DNA of 45,180 bases from a virus. How positions within the stretch are numbered: the stretch's first letter is position 1; each line of letters opens with the position of its first letter. Below the pieces are notes generated by a model that was not told the DNA's origin, did not search any database, and worked only from the letters and a program-made list of their open reading frames with translations. The translations under genes were made by a program, and so were the position numbers. Shown here piece after piece: positions 1-45,180 of this stretch. Location of the stretch: the IMG/VR virus record IMGVR_UViG_3300045988_132224, positions 1-45,180 of that record; one strand, 5' to 3'.

Positions 1-119
1 ATTTTTTTTTAGTAGCGGATAACCAGTTGCTGTCCCGGCTTCAATGTCGGATCCGGACCCAAATCATTATTGATTTGGATTTCATAAATCACTTCGCGGA
101 TGTCTTGCCCGCTCCGATC
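1..119. repeat. Terminal direct repeat; bases 1-119 are identical to 45062-45180 (genome unit 45061 bp)
   Basis: Read directly: both copies run a-t(9)-agtagcggataaccagttgctgtcccggcttcaatgtcgg...cgctccgatc. Indicates a circular or circularly assembled genome, or terminal redundancy. Confidence 0.95.
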
Positions 120-651: not shown

Positions 652-697
652 AGGGAACCCTCCTTTCAATCACATCTACATTTTCTATTCCCCGTCA

Positions 698-706
698 TGC
701 TATAAT
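698..706 (+). promoter_or_regulatory. Extended -10 promoter element TGcTATAAT for the plus-strand moron
   Basis: tgctataat read at 698-706, about 25 nt upstream of the GGGAGG SD and the GTG at 731. Confidence 0.5.
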
Positions 707-6749: not shown

Positions 6750-7520
6750 ATGAAAGATATGAGCCATCCTTTACCTAAATCCCATATACTTGTAAAACGC
6801 TATAGAAAATTTGCAAATTTTCTCAAAATGACGAGTAACAAAAATTTCCAGCGATTTATGTTGTGGATTCAACACTATATACAGCTGAAGTTTAATGAAA
6901 AAGAATTCAAATCAACCTTTTTACCAAAATATGAAGAAGGACAAATTATTTTTGTTGATTTCGGCTGCGGTATATCTCATGAATTTAGCTATCCTCATTA
7001 TGCAGTTGTTTTAAACTTGCATGATCGCAAGAAAAGCAACTTGCTTACTGTAGTACCTATGACATCAAAAAAGCCCAAACACAAAATATTAAAGCCATGG
7101 GAACATGAATTACAGTGTACAGTTCCTGATTTATTAGCTATGAAAGCCATGTCTGAATTTGACTTACAAAAACCTGAGTACAAGGATTTGCGAAATGATG
7201 TTATCCAGTTATTTTTACAAAATACCACTAAAGAGGAATTTGACAAAAGGCATCATGAGCTTATCGAAAGAGGCGTACAGGCTATATACAATAACAACTA
7301 TGACATTATGAGTTTTAGAGAAAAAATGAAGCAAGGGAGTATCGTTGAAACAAATCAAATCCGCACAATCAGTAAGTCCAGGATAATATTCCCAACGAAA
7401 AAATTACATCCACTTTATGATATTAAAGTTGATAAGCAAGACTTGTCTATCATTAAGTGGAAAATAATGAAAAATATTGTCATAGATATTATTGACAAAC
7501 CTGATGAAGAGCGTATATAA
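6750..7520 (+). CDS. Oversized MazF/PemK-fold toxin-like protein (N-terminal extension and ~95-aa insertion)
   Basis: GQIIFVDFGCGISHEFSYPHYAVVLN...LLTVVPMTSKK and GSIVETNQIRTISKSRI match the two conserved MazF/PemK/EndoA blocks (compare [25 protein letters not shown] and DSVILLEQIRTIDKQRL). Confidence 0.65.
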   Translation: MKDMSHPLPKSHILVKRYRKFANFLKMTSNKNFQRFMLWIQHYIQLKFNEKEFKSTFLPKYEEGQIIFVDFGCGISHEFSYPHYAVVLNLHDRKKSNLLTVVPMTSKKPKHKILKPWEHELQCTVPDLLAMKAMSEFDLQKPEYKDLRNDVIQLFLQNTTKEEFDKRHHELIERGVQAIYNNNYDIMSFREKMKQGSIVETNQIRTISKSRIIFPTKKLHPLYDIKVDKQDLSIIKWKIMKNIVIDIIDKPDEERI

Positions 7521-7590
7521 TGGAACTACAAATTGGGCTGTGAATCCCAAAAAATATTTTCCATTATTGTCTCCATTCGGAGGCAAAAAG

Positions 7591-7619
7591 AAAGGCGCTC
7601 TATGCAGAGCGCCTTTTTT
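7591..7619 (+). terminator. Rho-independent terminator after the MazF-like gene
   Basis: aaaggcgctc-tatgca-gagcgccttt stem-loop followed by a T-run. Confidence 0.8.
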
Positions 7620-7644
7620 GATTGCGTATTTGTCTATAAAAAAA

Positions 7645-7706
7645 TCCCGGTACCGTGCTGGAACACGATACCGGGATATGCCGCAGGTGCTGGAACACCT
7701 ACGGCG
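7645..7706. other. Two tandem hairpins with identical CTGGAA loops
   Basis: tcccggtaccgtg-CTGGAA-cacgataccggga at 7645-7676 (13-bp stem, 1 mismatch). ccgcaggtg-CTGGAA-cacctacgg at 7681-7704. The first is followed by a T-run on the minus strand, so it can act as a minus-strand terminator. Confidence 0.55.
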
Positions 7707-7794
7707 CTGTAAATCTACACACACGACTACGGGGGCTGATTTACGCTATCAGTATATCACATCAGCCTCCCTTTACGCAAAGGAGGTTATTTTT

Positions 7795-8874
7795 ATGACC
7801 GATTTAACCTATCACTTCTCTTTCAGAGAAAAGGATCGCGGCTGGCAGGTCATCTTATCGTACAAAGACCAGGCGGGACGCTGGAAGCAGAAGTCACGCC
7901 AGGGTCTGGCCACCAAAAAGGCTGCCAAAGCCGCCGGCGAAAAGCTCCTGGTCGACGTACTCGATGCAATGAAGAGCCAGCCAATTGCGCCGGAGCTCGT
8001 CGACATCTCCCTGGCAGAATTTGCAGAATACGTTTTCCGCAGCCGCAACCTGACGTATAACTCCGTCCTGGCCTATCGCTACGCGCTGAAGAATTACGGC
8101 CCGAAGCTTCTGGCCATGCCGGTCCGTAAAATCACCTATCTAGACATCCAGCAGGCGATGAGCGCCTGGCAATGTGCTGATGCCAGCTACCAGCTCTATG
8201 TAACCTGCCTCAAGATGGTCCTGTCCTACGCTGTCGAGCCCTACCATCTCCGGCAGGATAACCCAGCCATCCACTTGAAGCCCAGGAAGCTGAACCGCCG
8301 GCACAAGATCCGGGCGCTGACGCAGACCGAATTTGACCAGCTTATGGGAAGCATGGAGACCCGTCCGATGAAATACTATGCCATGTGTGCCATTGCTGGA
8401 TATACCGGAATGCGAGTAGGCGAAATTATGGCCCTCACTTGGGATGACGTAGATCTAAAAGAGCGACAGATTAGTGTTACCAAGCAATACGGCCGTATTG
8501 CCCATAAGAAGCGCGGGATCATGAACATCAAAAACAAGGCCGCCGGGCATCGTGTCATCCCCATTCCCGTCAAACTGCAGCAAATCCTATTGGCCTATCG
8601 CCGTTCCGAGCCGCGGCAAATAAATGGGCAGCTATTCCCGCATAGCCAGTTCTATAAATCACTAGATGGATACATAAAGAAGATTGTCCCTGATGCATCT
8701 ATCCATAGTTTACGTCACACCTATGCAACGATGCTGCTGGCCAATGGCACCGACATCAAGACCGTGGCAGCGCTCCTCGGCGACACGGTTACCACGGTTT
8801 TAAATGTCTACGTGGATTATACAGACGACATGAGACGGAAAGCCGCGCAGTCAATTGAAAAAATTTTTGCGTAG
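7795..8874 (+). CDS. int: Tyrosine integrase (lysogeny integrase)
   Basis: SD AAAGGAGG precedes the ATG at 7795, and the upstream part of ORF 7492 is discounted. Motifs AGYTGMRVGEI, HSLRHTYATML and LNVYVDY match the R...HxxR...Y pattern. It sits next to the repressor module and putative attP. Confidence 0.9.
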   Translation: MTDLTYHFSFREKDRGWQVILSYKDQAGRWKQKSRQGLATKKAAKAAGEKLLVDVLDAMKSQPIAPELVDISLAEFAEYVFRSRNLTYNSVLAYRYALKNYGPKLLAMPVRKITYLDIQQAMSAWQCADASYQLYVTCLKMVLSYAVEPYHLRQDNPAIHLKPRKLNRRHKIRALTQTEFDQLMGSMETRPMKYYAMCAIAGYTGMRVGEIMALTWDDVDLKERQISVTKQYGRIAHKKRGIMNIKNKAAGHRVIPIPVKLQQILLAYRRSEPRQINGQLFPHSQFYKSLDGYIKKIVPDASIHSLRHTYATMLLANGTDIKTVAALLGDTVTTVLNVYVDYTDDMRRKAAQSIEKIFA

Positions 8875-9678: not shown

Positions 9679-9711
9679 CCGCAACCCTATTATTTACGTA
9701 GGATTGCGGGA
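9679..9711 (-). terminator. Terminator ending the late/lysis operon
   Basis: cccgcaa...ttgcggg stem, followed on the minus strand by TATATTTTCC. Confidence 0.6.
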
Positions 9712-9717
9712 TTTTTA

Positions 9718-10002
9718 TTAGTTATTTTCCGCTGTTGTACTCTTGCTCAGCACAAATTTAATGGCCCAAATCGTGCCATTAATCAAGAGCGGCAAAACAA
9801 ATTTATCACGGATAGCATTCCAGCCAGTTTCGGACGCGGCATGCGCCTGTACCTGTGTCACAAACTTATCCGCTACGGATTCAAGCGCGGTCATCCCTTC
9901 AGTGCTCAAGCTTTCAATGATCTGCTGTTTCGCAGATTCTACTACATCGCTTGCATCCAGTGCTGACAACACGCCGTCACGTACTTCTGTCCATTTACTC
10001 AT
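9718..10002 (-). CDS. Hypothetical protein distal to the endolysin (C-terminal hydrophobic segment)
   Basis: ORF track; starts 3 nt after the amidase stop. Contains FVLPLLINGTIWAIKFVL. Confidence 0.55.
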   Translation of the reverse strand: MSKWTEVRDGVLSALDASDVVESAKQQIIESLSTEGMTALESVADKFVTQVQAHAASETGWNAIRDKFVLPLLINGTIWAIKFVLSKSTTAENN

Positions 10003-10004
10003 AG

Positions 10005-10562
10005 CTAATTCCCTCCTAAAATTTTCTGTTCGTAATCGGTAATTCCGCGAGCTACAGCGCGGGCCAAATCATCTTGATTATTTGCCAAAATCGCTTCATC
10101 GCCGGGGTTAGAAATAAAGGCAAGCTCAACTAGTACCGCCGGCATATCTGTATTGGTCAAAACATATAACCCATTAACACCAGGGGTTGCAATTTTTACG
10201 CCTCGATCATTGGTATCAAGGGCATCGACCAGCTGGTTCTGGATGCAGTCTGCAAGCATACTGCCGCGATAGCTTCCGGCGCAGGCCCATGTTTCAGTGC
10301 CGTTGGCCTCTTCTGCGTCGGCAGCATTGCAGTGGATGGACACGAAGATGTCGGCATCGCTGGAATTGGCGGCTTCACAGATTTCTTCTAAGCTATCGGA
10401 CTGAAGCAACGCTGTTTCGACGCCGGCCGCATTCAGGTAACTTTCCGCAGATTGACCGACTGCCAAAGCGACATCGCACTCACGAAGACCAGTTGCATCG
10501 TTTACGGCGCCCGGATCCGGTTTTCCGCCAGGTGCATGGCCTGGATTCAAAAATACTTTCAT
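10005..10562 (-). CDS. N-acetylmuramoyl-L-alanine amidase endolysin (Amidase_3 type)
   Basis: MKVFLNPGHAPGG...IFVSIHCNA...VLVELAFISN motifs. The ATG at 10562 overlaps the holin stop (ATGA). The upstream part of ORF 10005..10712 is discounted. Confidence 0.85.
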   Translation of the reverse strand: MKVFLNPGHAPGGKPDPGAVNDATGLRECDVALAVGQSAESYLNAAGVETALLQSDSLEEICEAANSSDADIFVSIHCNAADAEEANGTETWACAGSYRGSMLADCIQNQLVDALDTNDRGVKIATPGVNGLYVLTNTDMPAVLVELAFISNPGDEAILANNQDDLARAVARGITDYEQKILGGN

Positions 10563-10747
10563 TTTTTCTCTTCTCCTTTCGTCTGGGTGGCGGACTTTAC
10601 GGTGCCGCCGATGTAACCGAGAAGCCCTGAAGCAATGGACATACCCAGCTCGTTCAAGGCATAAAAAATCGCCAGAATCAAGGCCGTTACCAGCCCGATA
10701 ATGACGAGACAATCTGCGATATTCACTTTTTCAAACATTTCTACCAC
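10559..10747 (-). CDS. Holin (two TM segments, charged C-terminus)
   Basis: 62 aa, with CLVIIGLVTALILAIFYAL and SIASGLLGYIGG segments and a KGEEKK tail. Lies immediately upstream of the amidase. Confidence 0.7.
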   Translation of the reverse strand: MVEMFEKVNIADCLVIIGLVTALILAIFYALNELGMSIASGLLGYIGGTVKSATQTKGEEKK

Positions 10748-10758
10748 CTACATACGCA

Positions 10759-10971
10759 CTACATACGCGACAATACGGATGTCAGCACAGACGAAAAAAT
10801 GCCCACAACTGTGACACTTGTCCCGAGTGTCCAGCAAATGTCATGTTTGAGATCATCGATTCGATGATGGGCCGATTTGCCGGCTTCGACGGCTTGGACG
10901 ACCTCACGATTGAGATTCGTCAGCTGCCGTTCTATCCTATCCAAGCGAGTCATTAATTCAGTATCATTCAT
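10759..10971 (-). CDS. XhlA-like lysis-associated membrane protein
   Basis: N-terminal coiled coil (LDRIERQLTNLNREV) plus a C-terminal TM, positioned before the holin as in PBSX xhlA-xhlB-xlyA. Confidence 0.6.
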   Translation of the reverse strand: MNDTELMTRLDRIERQLTNLNREVVQAVEAGKSAHHRIDDLKHDICWTLGTSVTVVGIFSSVLTSVLSRM

Positions 10972-11059
10972 ATAATCCTCCTTTATTCAAATAACATTCG
11001 TCTATAATAGGCGGAGGTCTTGCTGTCTTCGTCATGGCATATGGTATCCTTTCAGAGAG

Positions 11060-12094
11060 GTGATACTATTGAAACTACCAAATGGATTCGGCACGGTCTA
11101 CAAAATGCAAGGGAATCGTCGCCGTCCTTACGTGGCAAAGAAGACAATACAAGGGAAACAAAAGCCTATCGGCTATTTTGAAACATTCGAGGAGGCCATG
11201 GCCTGTCTCGTCGAGTATAATCGCGACCCTGCCTTGCTGAGTCCGAGCAAGACAACTTTTGCCGAGGTCTACGCGCTTTGGAAGGCCCAGCACTTCCCGC
11301 GCCTCCGAAGTGATTCTGCGCGCATCAGCTACAAAAATTCGTATCGTCATTGCTCCCGCCTCCATCAAATGATTTTCGTGGACATCCGGCTCGGCCACCT
11401 CGACCATGTCATTGACGATGTGCGTCATGCAGGCTGCGGATACCCAACGCAGAAGAAAGTCCGCTCTCTGCTCGAGCAGCTTTACAAGTACGCAATACGA
11501 TATGACCTGGTCGTCAAAGATTATGCCCGATATCTCGATATTGACCGACCTCGTAAACTGCACAAGAAAAAGCCGTTTACCGTCCGTCAGCGCAACCGCT
11601 TGTGGCGTGGCGTTGATGATGTGCCCGAAGCACGTCATGTCCTCATGCTCATATACTCGGGATGCCGTGTCGGTGAGTACCGTCATATCCGGAAGACTGA
11701 CGTCAAGCTGCGCCGTCGCGTCATCGTGATCCGGCACAGCAAGACCGATGCCGGTGCGGGCAGGCTTATCCCCATCCCTCGCAAGCTCATGCCATGGTAC
11801 GAGGAGGCTATGCAGACTCCCGGACTCTACATCTGCGGACGCGCAGATGGCAGCCGTCACAGCTACGACTCTTTCCGCCGCGCTATCTTTGACCCTGTCA
11901 TGCACCACTTCGGCATGTCGCATACGCCGCATGAGTGCCGCCACACGCTTGCCAGTATGCTTGACTCTGCCGATGTCAACCGCACCGTCATCAAGCTCAT
12001 CCTCGGACACAGCCTCGAAGGTGTGACCGAACGTGTCTACACGCATAAGAGCATCCGCGAATTGCTGAGAGCCATCGACAAGGTCTGTACTTGA
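11060..12094 (+). CDS. Second tyrosine recombinase (Arm-type N-terminal DNA-binding domain); candidate tail-fibre invertase
   Basis: LPNGFGTVYKMQGNRRRPYVAKK arm-binding-like N-terminus. Catalytic-pattern motifs SGCRVGEY, HECRHTLAS, LGHS and ERVYTH. The likely start is the TTG at 11069. Confidence 0.85.
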   Translation: MILLKLPNGFGTVYKMQGNRRRPYVAKKTIQGKQKPIGYFETFEEAMACLVEYNRDPALLSPSKTTFAEVYALWKAQHFPRLRSDSARISYKNSYRHCSRLHQMIFVDIRLGHLDHVIDDVRHAGCGYPTQKKVRSLLEQLYKYAIRYDLVVKDYARYLDIDRPRKLHKKKPFTVRQRNRLWRGVDDVPEARHVLMLIYSGCRVGEYRHIRKTDVKLRRRVIVIRHSKTDAGAGRLIPIPRKLMPWYEEAMQTPGLYICGRADGSRHSYDSFRRAIFDPVMHHFGMSHTPHECRHTLASMLDSADVNRTVIKLILGHSLEGVTERVYTHKSIRELLRAIDKVCT

Positions 12095-12190
12095 CGTATG
12101 CTTAACCGATATATGCACTCGCGTGATATTCCTTGCCATGACTGCGCCGTCCTGTGCTTAACCTGTCATTACGATTTCGCACGATTTACA

Positions 12191-12231
12191 AGAGCCGCTA
12201 ACCCCTTACGCCACAAGGGCTTGGCGGCTCT
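12191..12231. terminator. Long hairpin between the convergent recombinase and zinc-ribbon genes
   Basis: agagccgc...gcggctct outer stem with an inner ccctt/aaggg stem. Confidence 0.5.
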
Positions 12232-12266
12232 TTGCGTCAGATGCAACGCACGATTCCCGCACGATT

Positions 12267-12449
12267 TTATTTGTCAGTGTCCGACTGACCAGAATCCCCG
12301 TCAGCCGTTGCCTTGCCTTCCTCGGCAGCTTTTTCGGTGTCATGCGTCTGCGTCCGGATATAATCCGCACATTTTTCATTTCGGCACCAGCCTTCAGCAT
12401 CCAATTTATGCCCGCAGAATGGGCAACGTTTTGCTCTTGCCATAATCAT
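12267..12449 (-). CDS. Small zinc-ribbon protein
   Basis: CPFCGHKLDAEGWCRNEKC motif. ATGA overlap with the upstream gene. Confidence 0.55.
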   Translation of the reverse strand: MIMARAKRCPFCGHKLDAEGWCRNEKCADYIRTQTHDTEKAAEEGKATADGDSGQSDTDK

Positions 12450-12859
12450 TCAGCTCCTTTCAATGCAGCTTCATACTCGGCCTTAACTTCTGCATACTCT
12501 GATTTCAGCTCGGCAATCAAAGACTCATCGCCAGCCAGCGTAGCAGTCGCAAGTGCATCTTTGAGCTCACTAATCTGCGACTCATAATCCGCCGCAATCG
12601 ACGCCTGCTTCTGCTCCGTCGTCACAATAATTGCCGGTGCATCAGTCGGCTTGCCATCCGCGCCGCGAATATAGCCCGTACCATTAGCGCCCGTGCCGCG
12701 ATTACCAACATAGTACGCATAATCATCATCCGATGTTTCGATGTATCCGTCATCGAGATACTTCTGCTTTTCTTCTGCTGTCGAAAAATGAATGCCGTCT
12801 GCAACGGTCGCAATGCGATTACCGTCAAAATCAAATTTGCATAAATACATAAAAATCAT
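12446..12859 (-). CDS. Tail-fibre-associated hypothetical protein (XkdW-position gene); start possibly 12850
   Basis: ORF track. Lies between the tail fibre and lysis genes, as XkdW/XkdX do in PBSX-like elements. Confidence 0.55.
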   Translation of the reverse strand: MIFMYLCKFDFDGNRIATVADGIHFSTAEEKQKYLDDGYIETSDDDYAYYVGNRGTGANGTGYIRGADGKPTDAPAIIVTTEQKQASIAADYESQISELKDALATATLAGDESLIAELKSEYAEVKAEYEAALKGAE

Positions 12860-12877
12860 CCTTTCTTAATTTAATTT

Positions 12878-12889
12878 ACAGTGGGGAAG
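12878..12889 (+). repeat. Crossover site S1: ACAGTGGGGAAG
   Basis: Read directly; one of four copies of this motif. Confidence 0.8.
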
Positions 12890-13079
12890 TAACCGCTATG
12901 GATGGGTGGCTTTTCCGGTGGCTTTCGCTCAGTTTCGTAAGCTTGTGACCAACCACCAAGGCGTGTCGTGGATGCAGTCACAGGCCCGAGAATCGGTCAC
13001 GCTTGCTGGGTTTACGTTAGACGTAGGGGATAATAATAAACAAGACTGCGATGCCCAATGGATCGCCATTGGGCAATAG
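12879..13079 (+). other. Silent tail-fibre tip cassette A (66 codons, no start codon)
   Basis: QWGSNRYGWVAFPVAFAQFRKLVTNHQGVSWMQSQARESVTLAGFTLDVGDNNKQDCDAQWIAIGQ*. Its stop directly abuts S2. Confidence 0.7.
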
Positions 13080-13091
13080 ACAGTGGGGAAA
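13080..13091 (+). repeat. Crossover site S2: ACAGTGGGGAAA
   Basis: Read directly. Confidence 0.8.
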
Positions 13092-13323
13092 TGCTAGTAT
13101 CAATGACGGTAGGACATACGGCGATTTCTTACTACCGATTTCGGTATCTGATGTTCTGGCCGTATTTGCCCTCGATTATGATAACAGCTCAACAAATGGG
13201 ACAACGATTGGCGATTACTATACAGTGACTTATAAGCCATCATTTTCGAATGGCTCGAGATTACGATTTGTAACTAAAGGGGTATCGATAGGCGGATTTT
13301 GCGTTTTTGTTATTTGCAAATAG
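13081..13323 (+). other. Silent tail-fibre tip cassette B (80 codons)
   Basis: QWGNASINDGRTYGDFLLPISVSDVLAVFALDYDNSSTNGTTIGDYYTVTYKPSFSNGSRLRFVTKGVSIGGFCVFVICK*. This is the distal part of ORF 13051..13323. Confidence 0.7.
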
Positions 13324-13489
13324 CGATATAAAATATCACATACTCATTACTTGTACCTAACCATTTATTGGTTTTCAAAGAATAGGTCTCTGGTCGCGTG
13401 GATAAGCCTTCGTGCATCCCGACGATAGCTATTAAATTCGCTGCTATCGGCAGGATAAGATTTTTATTTTCAGTGCTTCTTCCCCACTG
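13310..13489 (-). other. Silent tail-fibre tip cassette C (59 codons)
   Basis: QWGRSTENKNLILPIAANLIAIVGMHEGLSTRPETYSLKTNKWLGTSNEYVIFYIAICK*. It starts at S3 directly after the expressed gene's stop. Confidence 0.7.
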
Positions 13490-13490
13490 T
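13479..13490 (-). repeat. Crossover site S3: ACAGTGGGGAAG (minus strand)
   Basis: cttccccactgt on the plus strand, immediately 3' of the tail-fibre stop codon. Confidence 0.8.
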
Positions 13491-14297
13491 TTACTTGGTG
13501 ATGGCTAAATAAAAGCACGTCCCAGACGAAATGCTAGCATCGTTGACAATTTGGATATACCCATCATTACTGCCAGTTGCTGATATAAAATGGTTCGAGT
13601 CCTTATTATCCCAGATTGATATGACATATCGTAATATACTAGCTGATACTGGTAGATTAATGTGATTCTGGCTATTGACCACTCCCCACTGTATAATTAG
13701 GCCGCCGCAATTCGGGCCAAAGCAAATGTAGCCATTTTGGTCCATTAGCCCAGTGATGCCCAGTCGATGATTTGTAAACTTTTTCCCGTCCCAGGTTACG
13801 TCTGCCCCCGTTGCAAGATTTGCAATCATCGTACCCAGTCTTGCAAGGGTTGCCGCCGGCGCTTCTTTCCAATCACTAGCCCCGGTAGCAGCCTTAATTC
13901 TGTTGGCCAGTTCAGACACTTGATTTCTAAGTGTATCAGTATCTGAGGTTGGAACTAGTGTATCTTTTATAGTTGACGTCATAGAACTGTGCGCATCGGT
14001 AGCTTCATTATGGGATTTTACTACTTCTTCGCCATTAGCCAAAATAGCTTTACCAAGGTTTGCCGTAATTGTTTGTACATCATTATCATTGCAGTCATAT
14101 CCTTTTCCCACGATGAAATCAGCGATGGCTTTACACATGGAGCTGACCTGGAAGTAAAGCTTATTATGCAACCGGGACAACGCAATCCCGGGGATAACGC
14201 CGCTTTGCCGCTGGGTAGCGTTTGCATACTCGCTGTCATTGAATGTATGTTCTTTCGTATGATCTTCGTTAAAAATCTTGAAATTGGTAGATGCCAT
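13491..14297 (-). CDS. Tail fibre protein (currently expressed tip variant D)
   Basis: ORF track. It is the last structural gene after baseplate J and the DUF2612-like gene. The C-terminal 66 aa begin QWG at S4. Confidence 0.75.
   Translation of the reverse strand: MASTNFKIFNEDHTKEHTFNDSEYANATQRQSGVIPGIALSRLHNKLYFQVSSMCKAIADFIVGKGYDCNDNDVQTITANLGKAILANGEEVVKSHNEATDAHSSMTSTIKDTLVPTSDTDTLRNQVSELANRIKAATGASDWKEAPAATLARLGTMIANLATGADVTWDGKKFTNHRLGITGLMDQNGYICFGPNCGGLIIQWGVVNSQNHINLPVSASILRYVISIWDNKDSNHFISATGSNDGYIQIVNDASISSGTCFYLAITK
13681..13692 (-). repeat. Crossover site S4: ACAGTGGGGAGT (minus strand), inside the tail-fibre gene
   Basis: actccccactgt on the plus strand. It encodes I-Q-W-G, 66 codons before the stop. 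Confidence 0.8.
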
Positions 14298-14312
14298 ATA
14301 TATTCCCTCCTA

Positions 14313-14963
14313 TTATCCCCATCGGCCCGAATCATATCCGGACAATCTGGACGTATCAGTATCATAAGCAAATGACATTTCGTCGCCTTGTTCAATCCAA
14401 TTCCCTTTATCGTATCCAGCAATGACGTCGTTTCCGGTGTCGTATCCGAAAACATGGTCATTTGCAAAGTATGCGTTTACGAGGACTGACTGCGGCTTGG
14501 GGATAATGTCTCCATTACGAATCATTAGTTGAGTAATTTTATCAAGCCCATTGGATATAATCACCACATCAATGGTCATATCTTGATTATCTTCAATTAA
14601 GATTGGAGTACCAAATAATACCTTCCATGTTGTTGCCAGATCTTGAATGCCGCCTTTCCACATATTTTTTGATATTTTAGCCATTAGTAATGAGCGGAAA
14701 TTCGCATTATCTAATATAGGATTTAAATTAAATTCAGGTTGATATCCTAACATTCGTGATGCACCGATAATCTCACCGAGCACATCTTCCTGCACACCAT
14801 CAGCATAATCCAGGTCAAAGTCATCATCGAGTTCAACTCCTAATGAAAAAATCTCGTTGCTATGTGAAAGGAGTGCTCGTACCATGCTCATGTATTTGGG
14901 TTTATCTCGATGTTCGCCGGTGATGAGCTTCAAGTAGTTATCGACAAATTCCATACCTATCAC
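14313..14963 (-). CDS. Baseplate/tail-fibre base protein (DUF2612-like by memory)
   Basis: ORF track; position after baseplate J. Overlapping ATGA-type junction. Confidence 0.55.
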   Translation of the reverse strand: MIGMEFVDNYLKLITGEHRDKPKYMSMVRALLSHSNEIFSLGVELDDDFDLDYADGVQEDVLGEIIGASRMLGYQPEFNLNPILDNANFRSLLMAKISKNMWKGGIQDLATTWKVLFGTPILIEDNQDMTIDVVIISNGLDKITQLMIRNGDIIPKPQSVLVNAYFANDHVFGYDTGNDVIAGYDKGNWIEQGDEMSFAYDTDTSRLSGYDSGRWG

Positions 14964-25261: not shown

Positions 25262-25842
25262 GTTTTATCCCTCACTACATACGTTATTGCCTTGCGCATT
25301 TCGCCGGTATCAATCAGCGGTTGCGAGGACCCCTTCTTCTTAATGGTGTATGGGGCATTGGGTGGCCATCCATTGGCCGGATTCTCGAACCAGCCGCGGG
25401 CGGCTGATACAGCCACCATGCCTGCTTTGTTTAGATTGGCCTCACATTGTGCTGGTTTCCCCTCTAAGGCACTTTTGCTGGCCGCGCCTATAAGTTTACC
25501 AATGGCGTCTTTCTGGCTCGCTATGGCCGGTTCTAAGACGGGCCTGGGCGGGACGTGATACATGGGGCTCCCGTGCGAATGGATGTACAGCTCGTGAGCC
25601 TTGCTGTATTTCATACCAGAATCAAGGCCGTCCTGCATTTCCTTGCGCATGGACGCGCTGCGGACGCCATGAGACTGGATATAGAGCAACTCGGCATTGT
25701 TGATTTCGCCACTGTGTTCACGCGTTGAATTTTCTGCCGGGATGCCGACAAGGACTTCTTTATTGGTCAGCGCTTTTAGCTGCTTCCGCAACTCCTGCAG
25801 GTGGTTGAGCTTCTGTAGCGACACTTTCATTACCATACGCAC
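25258..25842 (-). CDS. Head-tail connector/head-closure protein (hypothetical)
   Basis: ORF track; operon context. Confidence 0.5.
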   Translation of the reverse strand: MRMVMKVSLQKLNHLQELRKQLKALTNKEVLVGIPAENSTREHSGEINNAELLYIQSHGVRSASMRKEMQDGLDSGMKYSKAHELYIHSHGSPMYHVPPRPVLEPAIASQKDAIGKLIGAASKSALEGKPAQCEANLNKAGMVAVSAARGWFENPANGWPPNAPYTIKKKGSSQPLIDTGEMRKAITYVVRDKT

Positions 25843-44999: not shown

Positions 45000-45071
45000 T
45001 GGTATAATAAACTTGAGTATTTTGGTATGTGGCTGTTGTCGGCGGTTGCCGGCAGCAGCCAATTTTTTTTT
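45000..45071 (+). ncRNA. Candidate ~55-nt small RNA: extended -10 promoter followed by an intrinsic terminator
   Basis: TGgTATAAT at 45000-45008. A 13-bp stem ggctgttgtcggc / gccggcagcagcc (perfect with two G-U pairs on the plus-strand RNA) lies at 45031-45060, followed by aa-T9. Confidence 0.35.
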
Positions 45072-45180
45072 AGTAGCGGATAACCAGTTGCTGTCCCGGC
45101 TTCAATGTCGGATCCGGACCCAAATCATTATTGATTTGGATTTCATAAATCACTTCGCGGATGTCTTGCCCGCTCCGATC
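45062..45180. repeat. Second copy of the terminal 119-bp repeat
   Basis: Identical to bases 1-119. Confidence 0.95.

Follow-up and report, generated by a model that had tools for sequence, protein, structure and literature searches.

The window analysed here is the 45,180-nucleotide (nt) IMG/VR virus record IMGVR_UViG_3300045988_132224 at its full length. It carries an exact 119-base-pair (bp) terminal direct repeat (bases 1-119 = 45062-45180) and therefore represents a circularly assembled complete phage genome of ~45,061 bp, that of a complete temperate, contractile-tailed gut phage. Its tail-fibre gene lies directly downstream of genes for DUF2612 and Baseplate_J proteins and runs into an array of short repeats and alternative C-terminal tip cassettes, which is the subject of this work. 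Beyond the array follow open reading frames (ORFs) of 137 and 60 amino acids (aa), then, on the opposite strand, the gene of a 344-aa tyrosine recombinase, and after it XhlA-like and Amidase_3 lysis genes. A first-pass annotation had read the region as a multi-inversion array able to join the 202-codon constant part of the fibre to any of four tips, with tip C reached in two steps. Based on the arrangement of the array and its isomers in related genomes, we conclude that this temperate, contractile-tailed Negativicutes phage very probably carries an active shufflon of the Rin type, a multiple-inversion system.

All coordinates are positions in the window; letters A-D denote the tip cassettes and S1-S4 the sites (Table 1), L-numbers denote related loci or contigs, and P-numbers related proteins or protein clusters. 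The fibre ORF (13491-14297, minus strand) encodes 268 aa, of which residues 203-205 form a Gln-Trp-Gly (QWG) motif; counted from Q203, 66 codons precede the stop. Exact copies of ACAGTGGGGA(A/G) occur four times, at 12878 and 13080 on the plus strand and at 13490 and 13692 on the minus strand; ACAGTGGGGAA is matched exactly at 12878-12888(+), 13080-13090(+) and 13480-13490(-), and ACAGTGGGGAG at 13682-13692(-), inside the fibre gene. Outside the array, one further match was found in the 45 kilobases (kb), at 25705 and with one mismatch, and shuffled sequence contained a mean of 1.07 matches at ≤1 mismatch, with five being reached in 1 of 100 shuffles. Translation from each CAG showed that every one of the four sites opens an in-frame cassette beginning with QWG. 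S3 lies directly 3′ of the fibre stop (aag TAA ACAGTGGGGAAG), and the stop codon of cassette A (TAG, 13077-13079) abuts S2. The silent cassettes A, B and C are each preceded by a stop codon a few codons upstream and thus lack a start of their own. Relative to the gene, the layout reads const-S4> D> S3> C> <B <S2 <A <S1: a constant 5′ part of the fibre gene is followed by start-less, promoter-less 3′ cassettes in both orientations, and a short asymmetric repeat stands directly upstream of every cassette, one within the gene and one directly after its stop, as is characteristic of Rin-type shufflons. The site coordinates, QWG readings, cassette lengths and placement of S4, S3 and the cassette A stop in the first-pass annotation were all borne out by our site scan and translation. 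A direct repeat, D2 (13088-13107 / 13528-13547), was explained by the palindrome AATGCTAGCATT and dropped as chance.

Table 1. The tail-fibre tip array and the genes between it and the lysis module, in window coordinates.
Feature	Position	Strand	Evidence or relation
Constant part of tail-fibre gene, codons 1-202, ending ...CGGLII	13692..14297	-	ORF 13491-14297
S4, in-gene site ACAGTGGGGAG spanning codons I202-Q-W-G	13682..13692	-	Junction point of const-B fusion in L038/P0006
Tip D, C-terminal cassette expressed in this assembly, 66 codons + stop	13491..13691	-	Translation, AlphaFold2 (AF2) model, tip hidden Markov model (HMM)
S3, site after fibre stop, oriented as S4	13479..13490	-	Breakpoint of L039 inversion
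Cassette C, silent tip, 59 codons + stop, oriented as fibre gene	13310..13489	-	Tip HMM; inverted in L039, L038, L045
Cassette B, silent tip, 80 codons + stop, orientation opposite to gene	13081..13323	+	Identical to expressed tips of P0006, P0050
S2, opens cassette B, abuts A stop	13080..13091	+	Partner of S4 in L038 arrangement
Cassette A, silent tip, 66 codons + stop, orientation opposite to gene	12879..13079	+	Pfam Gp53-like_C; close variant expressed in L045
S1, outermost site, 19 bp from start of next gene	12878..12889	+	Breakpoint of L039 inversion
137-aa ORF downstream of array, conserved module, without confident family match	12446..12859	-	Protein-family scans
60-aa ORF with CxxC...C motif, conserved module	12267..12449	-	ORF and module comparison
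Candidate shufflon invertase, 344-aa tyrosine recombinase	11060..12094	+	Pfam Phage_integrase 1.4e-14, catalytic residues, AF2, association

For a comparison of the site across relatives, we assembled 116 distinct contexts (112 distinct tips), seeded on CAGTGG only. The conserved block extends from -6 to +9, about 16 bp (A.TA.ACAGTGGGGAA), with variable sequence on both sides. An A at -1 and an A at +8 were present in all 116 contexts and a T at -4 in 107 of them; the Gly codon is always GGA, CAA never replaces CAG as the Gln codon, and even tips reading QWV or QWI retain the A at +8. Conservation also reaches upstream of the cassette ORF, into non-coding and stop-codon positions. This invariance of synonymous positions indicates a constraint acting on the DNA and not on the protein. 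As QWG belongs to the Gp53-like_C domain motif, one could conceive of the four repeats as chance matches, or as a purely protein-level motif of paralogous domains that plays no role as a DNA site. However, nucleotides that remain invariant where the code allows change, conservation that continues beyond the coding sequence, and natural inversion breakpoints that fall within the repeat refute this explanation, to which we assign practically no probability. The site forms a single asymmetric block, and no dyad symmetry was found in its logo; the earlier description of the sites as conserved on one side only, as in sfx, does not simply hold.

Related genomes carry the same array in other arrangements. 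L039/L041, an integrated prophage from a different sequencing run, is 99.9-100% identical to the window, but contains 12878-13490 in inverted orientation. In L039, the alignments on either side share exactly the 12 bp of the S1/S3 repeat, placing the breakpoints inside the repeat, as in an S1 × S3 product, and the resulting order is const D> A> B> <C. L038, which is 98-99.8% identical, shows the order const-S-B> <C <S, the predicted S4 × S2 product, and in its fibre (P0006) a tip 100% identical to cassette B is joined at QWG to the same constant part. At this junction, S4 has supplied the left flank and S2 the right one, which confines the crossover to ACAGTGGGGA. Cassette B is 100% identical to the expressed tip of P0050, too, where it follows a different constant part, and L045 expresses a variant of cassette A, A′, on a 338-aa fibre with a different constant part and baseplate module, followed by B> <C. 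Cassette C is inverted in L039, L038 and L045. Among the sampled relatives (103 sampled proteins), 12 of 67 distinct silent cassettes recur as expressed tips. With L039 and L038, the array thus shows inversion isomers among near-identical genomes with breakpoints in the repeats, a further hallmark of Rin-type shufflons, which lends support to the proposed multi-inversion array; the silent segments have likewise proved to be related to tail-fibre termini.

Numerous contigs end at a site or within ~55 bp of one (e.g. L023, L028, L030, L036, L049, L067, L070, L072 and L074), and L085 and L086 end exactly at their own site. L073 contains the constant-end junction on both strands, at 23-45(+) and 683-705(-), 660 bp apart and each with a different tip, and looks like an assembly chimera of two isomers in one sample. 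It is conceivable that past horizontal exchange left the cassettes behind as static remnants, and that the genomes differ through rare historical illegitimate or short-homology recombination, not through programmed switching; the occurrence of the window arrangement in five public contigs would fit this idea, as would the absence of exact const-A, const-B and const-C proteins from the record. On the other hand, every silent cassette is intact and in frame, with stop packed against site, synonymous site positions are frozen in all contexts compared, the inversion in L039 has its breakpoints exactly in the 12-bp repeat of an otherwise virtually identical genome, and contig breaks at sites recur across many independent assemblies. 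We regard static remnants as highly improbable.

Further shuffling was seen among relatives: in the metagenome loci L075 and L082, cassettes k21, k22 and k23 follow the same constant end in different order and orientation. The surroundings of the array vary as well. A comparison of L043-L045 with window positions 9700-12860 revealed a common module of a 134-aa ORF, a 58-aa ORF, the recombinase and the lysis genes, including an identical 134-aa protein. This module sits behind two baseplate/fibre modules, DUF2612/Baseplate_J and Phage_Mu_Gp48/Baseplate_J_M/C, and cassettes A, B and C are present behind both. The occurrence of one switch module behind two baseplate modules indicates mosaic exchange of the whole switch. 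The exact 137-aa protein also adjoins shufflons behind two different baseplate/fibre modules.

With the constant LIIQWG strand attached, cassette A matches Pfam Gp53-like_C (PF21882) at 34.1 bits (cut-off 24.9) and B, with 24.8 bits, at the threshold, while C and D match in part only. We also used an HMM of 154 tips unrelated to A-D, with QWG removed, and shuffled tips as controls. A-D scored 16-19 bits, compared to shuffle maxima of 7-11.5 bits; D reached 17.7 bits (shuffle maximum 11.5) and C 16.1 bits (shuffle maximum 7.2). Judging by the HMM and PF21882, all four tips belong to one domain family. A structure was modelled for the D fibre: only residues 165-268 of the AF2 model are confident, forming a beta-rich region with a predicted local distance difference test score (pLDDT) of 64-92, in which strand 201-208 spans the junction, and the best match of this model in the PDB, as found by Foldseek, is the R2 pyocin tail fibre (6ct8, E=8e-4). 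The constant part is 90-97% identical in >45 database proteins with unrelated tips after IIQW, and one metagenome scan yielded ~45 further cassette types. Neither the constant part nor the 137-aa ORF had a match in Pfam or NCBIfam. The D form of the fibre is on record in NCBI as DAL67260.1 ('MAG TPA Caudoviricetes sp.'; exact look-up).

Both recombinases encoded in the window are of the tyrosine type, and a scan of 30 ORFs from across the genome revealed no serine recombinase (Resolvase, PF00239), in agreement with the first-pass annotation, which had taken the nearby recombinase for a tyrosine type. The 344-aa protein matches Pfam Phage_integrase (PF00589) at 1.4e-14, and its catalytic set R203, K228, H291, R294, H317 and Y327 is complete and invariant in an alignment of 35 homologues. 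The proteins most similar to its AF2 model (pLDDT 87) are Tn1549 Int and full-length lambda Int. The model has an N-domain of three strands plus a helix (beta-beta-beta-alpha) at residues 12-55 (pLDDT ~82-86) and a Foldseek alignment of ~357 columns with full-length lambda Int; a Pfam search of the N-terminus detected no arm domain. The second recombinase (7492-8874) contains an Arm-DNA-bind_4 domain. The phage-host junction of L039 (attP side) falls at window position ~8945, 71 bp past the stop of this gene, which, given such proximity, is the phage integrase. Hence, the recombinase flanking the array is distinct from the integrase, as in Rin-type shufflons. In the integrated copy, the junction (L039 13298-13388) is next to host glnS, and the prophages L039 and L049 adjoin host glnS, maf and radC. 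Just upstream of the integrase ORF, and overlapping its long reading, lies an ORF (6750-7520, plus strand) whose toxin domain is PemK/MazF-like and which matches a mazE-like PHROG.

Wherever a relative has enough flank, the 344-aa recombinase adjoins an array, with L005 as the exception. Among IMG/VR relatives of 79-94% identity, it is encoded 0.7-1.9 kb from arrays of 2-5 such sites. Recombinase relatives of 53-55% identity (L009-L011 and L018, with 98-99% identity among themselves) lie 4 bp from arrays with the core CTGTCG(G/A)(G/T)GA and cassettes of the form VGEL...HNN...AAYxWxRTA, assigned to Pfam Gp10_C; the core of the 55%-identical clade is CTGTCGGGGAA. At 49% identity, contigs of an Acidaminococcus relative end exactly at CCTGTCGAGGA, and at 46%, a Phascolarctobacterium relative flanks 2+2 GCAGTGGGGA sites with Gp53-like_C ORFs. 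No clear arrays were found for relatives of 33-38% identity (L016, L017, L019, L020 and L054-L063), some of which have upstream tandem repeats resembling integrase arm or att sites; we therefore claim the link to shufflons only down to ~46% identity. The recombinase family comprises 824 protein clusters at E≤1e-10. In the second class of arrays, seen in L009-L012, L018 (~7000-8330) and at the ends of L084-L086, the recombinases are 49-55% identical and the cassettes start with VGEL or VDEL and end with HNN..AAYxWxRTA. Here, recombinases 98-99% identical to each other serve GGGA and ATGA core variants alike.

Based on this association, we infer that the 344-aa recombinase is the catalyst of the array. 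In principle, a real shufflon might instead be operated in trans by a host recombinase or by the arm-type integrase, the 344-aa protein then being a relic or an additional integrase. B. fragilis Mpi is one known example of an invertase acting in trans (cited in PMC6109161), the closest cultured-phage and plasmid relatives of the 344-aa protein are annotated as integrases, its predicted structure resembles those of lambda Int and Tn1549 Int, including the N-terminal three-strand-plus-helix domain, and L005 possesses the recombinase without an array. Yet the recombinase gene travels with the array across differing baseplate/fibre constant modules, relatives of 46-55% identity again directly adjoin arrays, the core sequence changes with the recombinase clade, and the true integrase is placed at attP. 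Moreover, the hosts span Selenomonadales and Acidaminococcales, making a single shared host enzyme unlikely. We thus consider it improbable that another enzyme catalyses the inversions.

An exact look-up of the 344-aa recombinase gave no match, because gene callers take a later start (298 aa) or an antisense ORF. A 354-aa ORF (11075-12139, minus strand) runs antisense across the whole recombinase gene and is called in its place in L037, L039/L041, L045 and L047; in other public contigs, the recombinase is called as a truncated 298-aa protein. Annotation therefore often hides the invertase. The recombinase clusters P0125, P0126, P0156, P0186 and P0244 have hundreds of members each, with longest contigs of only ~1-4 kb, which would fit assemblies routinely breaking at the adjacent shufflon.

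Several points weigh against an active shufflon driven by the 344-aa recombinase. Of the predicted fibre proteins, a collection of 15 billion proteins contains only the D form in exact copy and none of const-A, const-B and const-C, and among the sampled proteins no fibre was seen to express tip C. L005 encodes the recombinase (88% identical, tblastn), yet its only site is the one within the gene, and silent cassettes are lacking: in the region L005 7560-7900, the tip stop is directly followed by the next gene. This could be a collapsed or an ancestral state. The arrangements of this phage are known from assembled contigs, so that the evidence for switching within one population is indirect. 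For the recombinase, association is the evidence of catalysis, and its nearest relatives in cultured phages (31-35% identity) are annotated as integrase or hypothetical. Finally, S4 and S3 are directly repeated, and we identified no mechanism by which inversion would be favoured over a deletion between them; when eight loci were compared for conserved arm-type repeats, only the core site emerged.

An active shufflon of this kind would operate as follows. The late operon would express one fibre, consisting of the 202-codon constant part and whichever cassette follows S4, which is D in this assembly. Every cassette starts with the ~16-bp asymmetric site, read as I/x-Q-W-G, and ends with a stop abutting the next site. 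The 344-aa recombinase would bring two inverted sites together, carry out strand exchange within ACAGTGGGGA and invert the stretch between them, with S4 × S2 leading to tip B and S4 × S1 to tip A; S3 × S1 or S3 × S2 would reorder the silent cassettes, and a second inversion would then bring in C. As the site lies within the first beta-strand of a Gp53-like_C receptor-binding domain, each flip would replace almost the whole distal domain, presumably changing host or receptor specificity. The tips probably differ in receptor, and switching is likely to be frequent within a population.

Close relatives of the 344-aa recombinase occur in Selenomonas bovis (93% identity) and Anaerovibrio (80-81%), and more distant ones in Phascolarctobacterium and Acidaminococcus, pointing to a Negativicutes bacterium as the phage host; a Selenomonadaceae-like gut bacterium of this class appears to be the best explanation. 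At the DNA level, 12400-14400 had no match among 50,697 phage records. The tip-swapping system is widespread in Negativicutes phages. Tentatively, we would go further and propose that these recombinases could constitute a large undescribed clade of three-domain, lambda-Int-like tyrosine invertases for tail-fibre shufflons in phages of Selenomonadales and Acidaminococcales, with at least two site classes (ACAGTGGGGA and CTGTCGnnGA) and two tip folds (Gp53-like_C and Gp10_C), in which the in-frame site would serve as a universal splice junction for a communal pool of >100 cassettes across unrelated baseplate modules.

With the array, a host-range switch that is tractable and defined in sequence becomes available for phages of Negativicutes, abundant but poorly studied gut bacteria with an outer membrane. 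A simple search rule for such switches follows from the 16-bp site combined with the recombinase family; by this rule, assemblies broken at them could be mended and missed or 'integrase' annotations of the recombinase corrected. The very large repertoire of tips on an almost invariant shaft represents a natural library for receptor-binding studies and engineering. Furthermore, the possible arm-type domain of the invertase bears on the question, raised for Rin, of inversion being favoured over deletion.

In the shufflon of R64 and other IncI plasmids, the tyrosine recombinase Rci acts on asymmetric sfx sites to exchange the tips of PilV. Like the array described here, it combines multiple inversion by a tyrosine recombinase and asymmetric sites with a constant N-terminal part and alternative C-terminal adhesin tips; however, sites and target are unrelated, the target being the plasmid pilus protein PilV there and a fibre gene behind Baseplate_J/DUF2612 here. 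A tblastn search with the recombinase against 72,556 plasmids (E≤1e-3) matched 65 records; among the 25 matches listed, none was annotated as rci, nor were IncI-type hosts among the leading organisms. In the absence of detectable similarity between the recombinases, the Rci/sfx precedent invoked by the first-pass annotation holds as a functional analogy only, not as kinship. The fibre switches of Mu (Gin), P1 (Cin), e14 (Pin) and p15B (Min) rely on serine invertases, dyad-symmetric sites and an enhancer. A serine-invertase fibre switch by multiple inversions has also been described in the gin shufflon of Enterobacter FR-phi (PMC13418256). These systems likewise produce alternative tail-fibre C-termini by DNA inversion, in Min and FR-phi by multiple inversions, but neither a serine recombinase (30 ORFs) nor dyad-symmetric sites (site logo) were found here. 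DUF2612 neighbours, of which the present fibre gene has one, are enriched next to predicted inversion targets (Milman et al. 2023; PMC9881135). Our literature search found no description of this site, of this recombinase clade or, in this respect, of Negativicutes phages.

The closest parallel comes from prophages of Bifidobacterium, whose Rin shufflon was described as the first case of a tyrosine invertase encoded by a phage (Mavrich et al. 2018; PMC6109161) and has also been reported from Eggerthella prophages (PMC8778435). As in the array analysed here, a constant N-terminal part of a receptor-binding protein (RBP) is combined there with promoter-less C-terminal cassettes, each following a short asymmetric repeat (11 bp in Rin), with one copy located inside the gene and another immediately behind the stop; in both systems, a tyrosine recombinase distinct from the integrase flanks the array, and isomers of related prophages have their breakpoints in the repeats. 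The sites, however, are not the same (ACAGTGGGGAA here, rix TTCCCTAACCC there), the tip fold is Gp53-like_C instead of TP901-1 RBP-like, and the phage is a contractile-tailed one of Negativicutes with Baseplate_J/DUF2612, compared to a siphovirus of Actinobacteria. Going by its description, Rin is armless and XerD-like, whereas the recombinase studied here is modelled with an extra N-domain and aligns to full-length lambda Int. The tail-fibre shufflon of BV01-like Phocaeicola/Bacteroides phages, in which 10-bp motifs are used and all configurations have been seen in reads (PMC13596623, 2026 preprint), also resembles our array, in that a recombinase-flanked window (~1.7 kb in BV01-like phages) overlaps the tail-fibre gene's distal end and directional motifs lie between non-homologous cassettes. 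It differs in the motif (TGGGAGAACT), host phylum and cassette number, and in offering read-level proof where we have assembled contigs. Since the Rin and BV01-like shufflons follow the same logic, the action of a tyrosine recombinase on a phage receptor-binding tip is not as unusual as the first-pass annotation had supposed. Systems of this kind have been described before in phages of Bifidobacterium and Bacteroides, and what we describe here is apparently a very large further member, rather than something categorically new.

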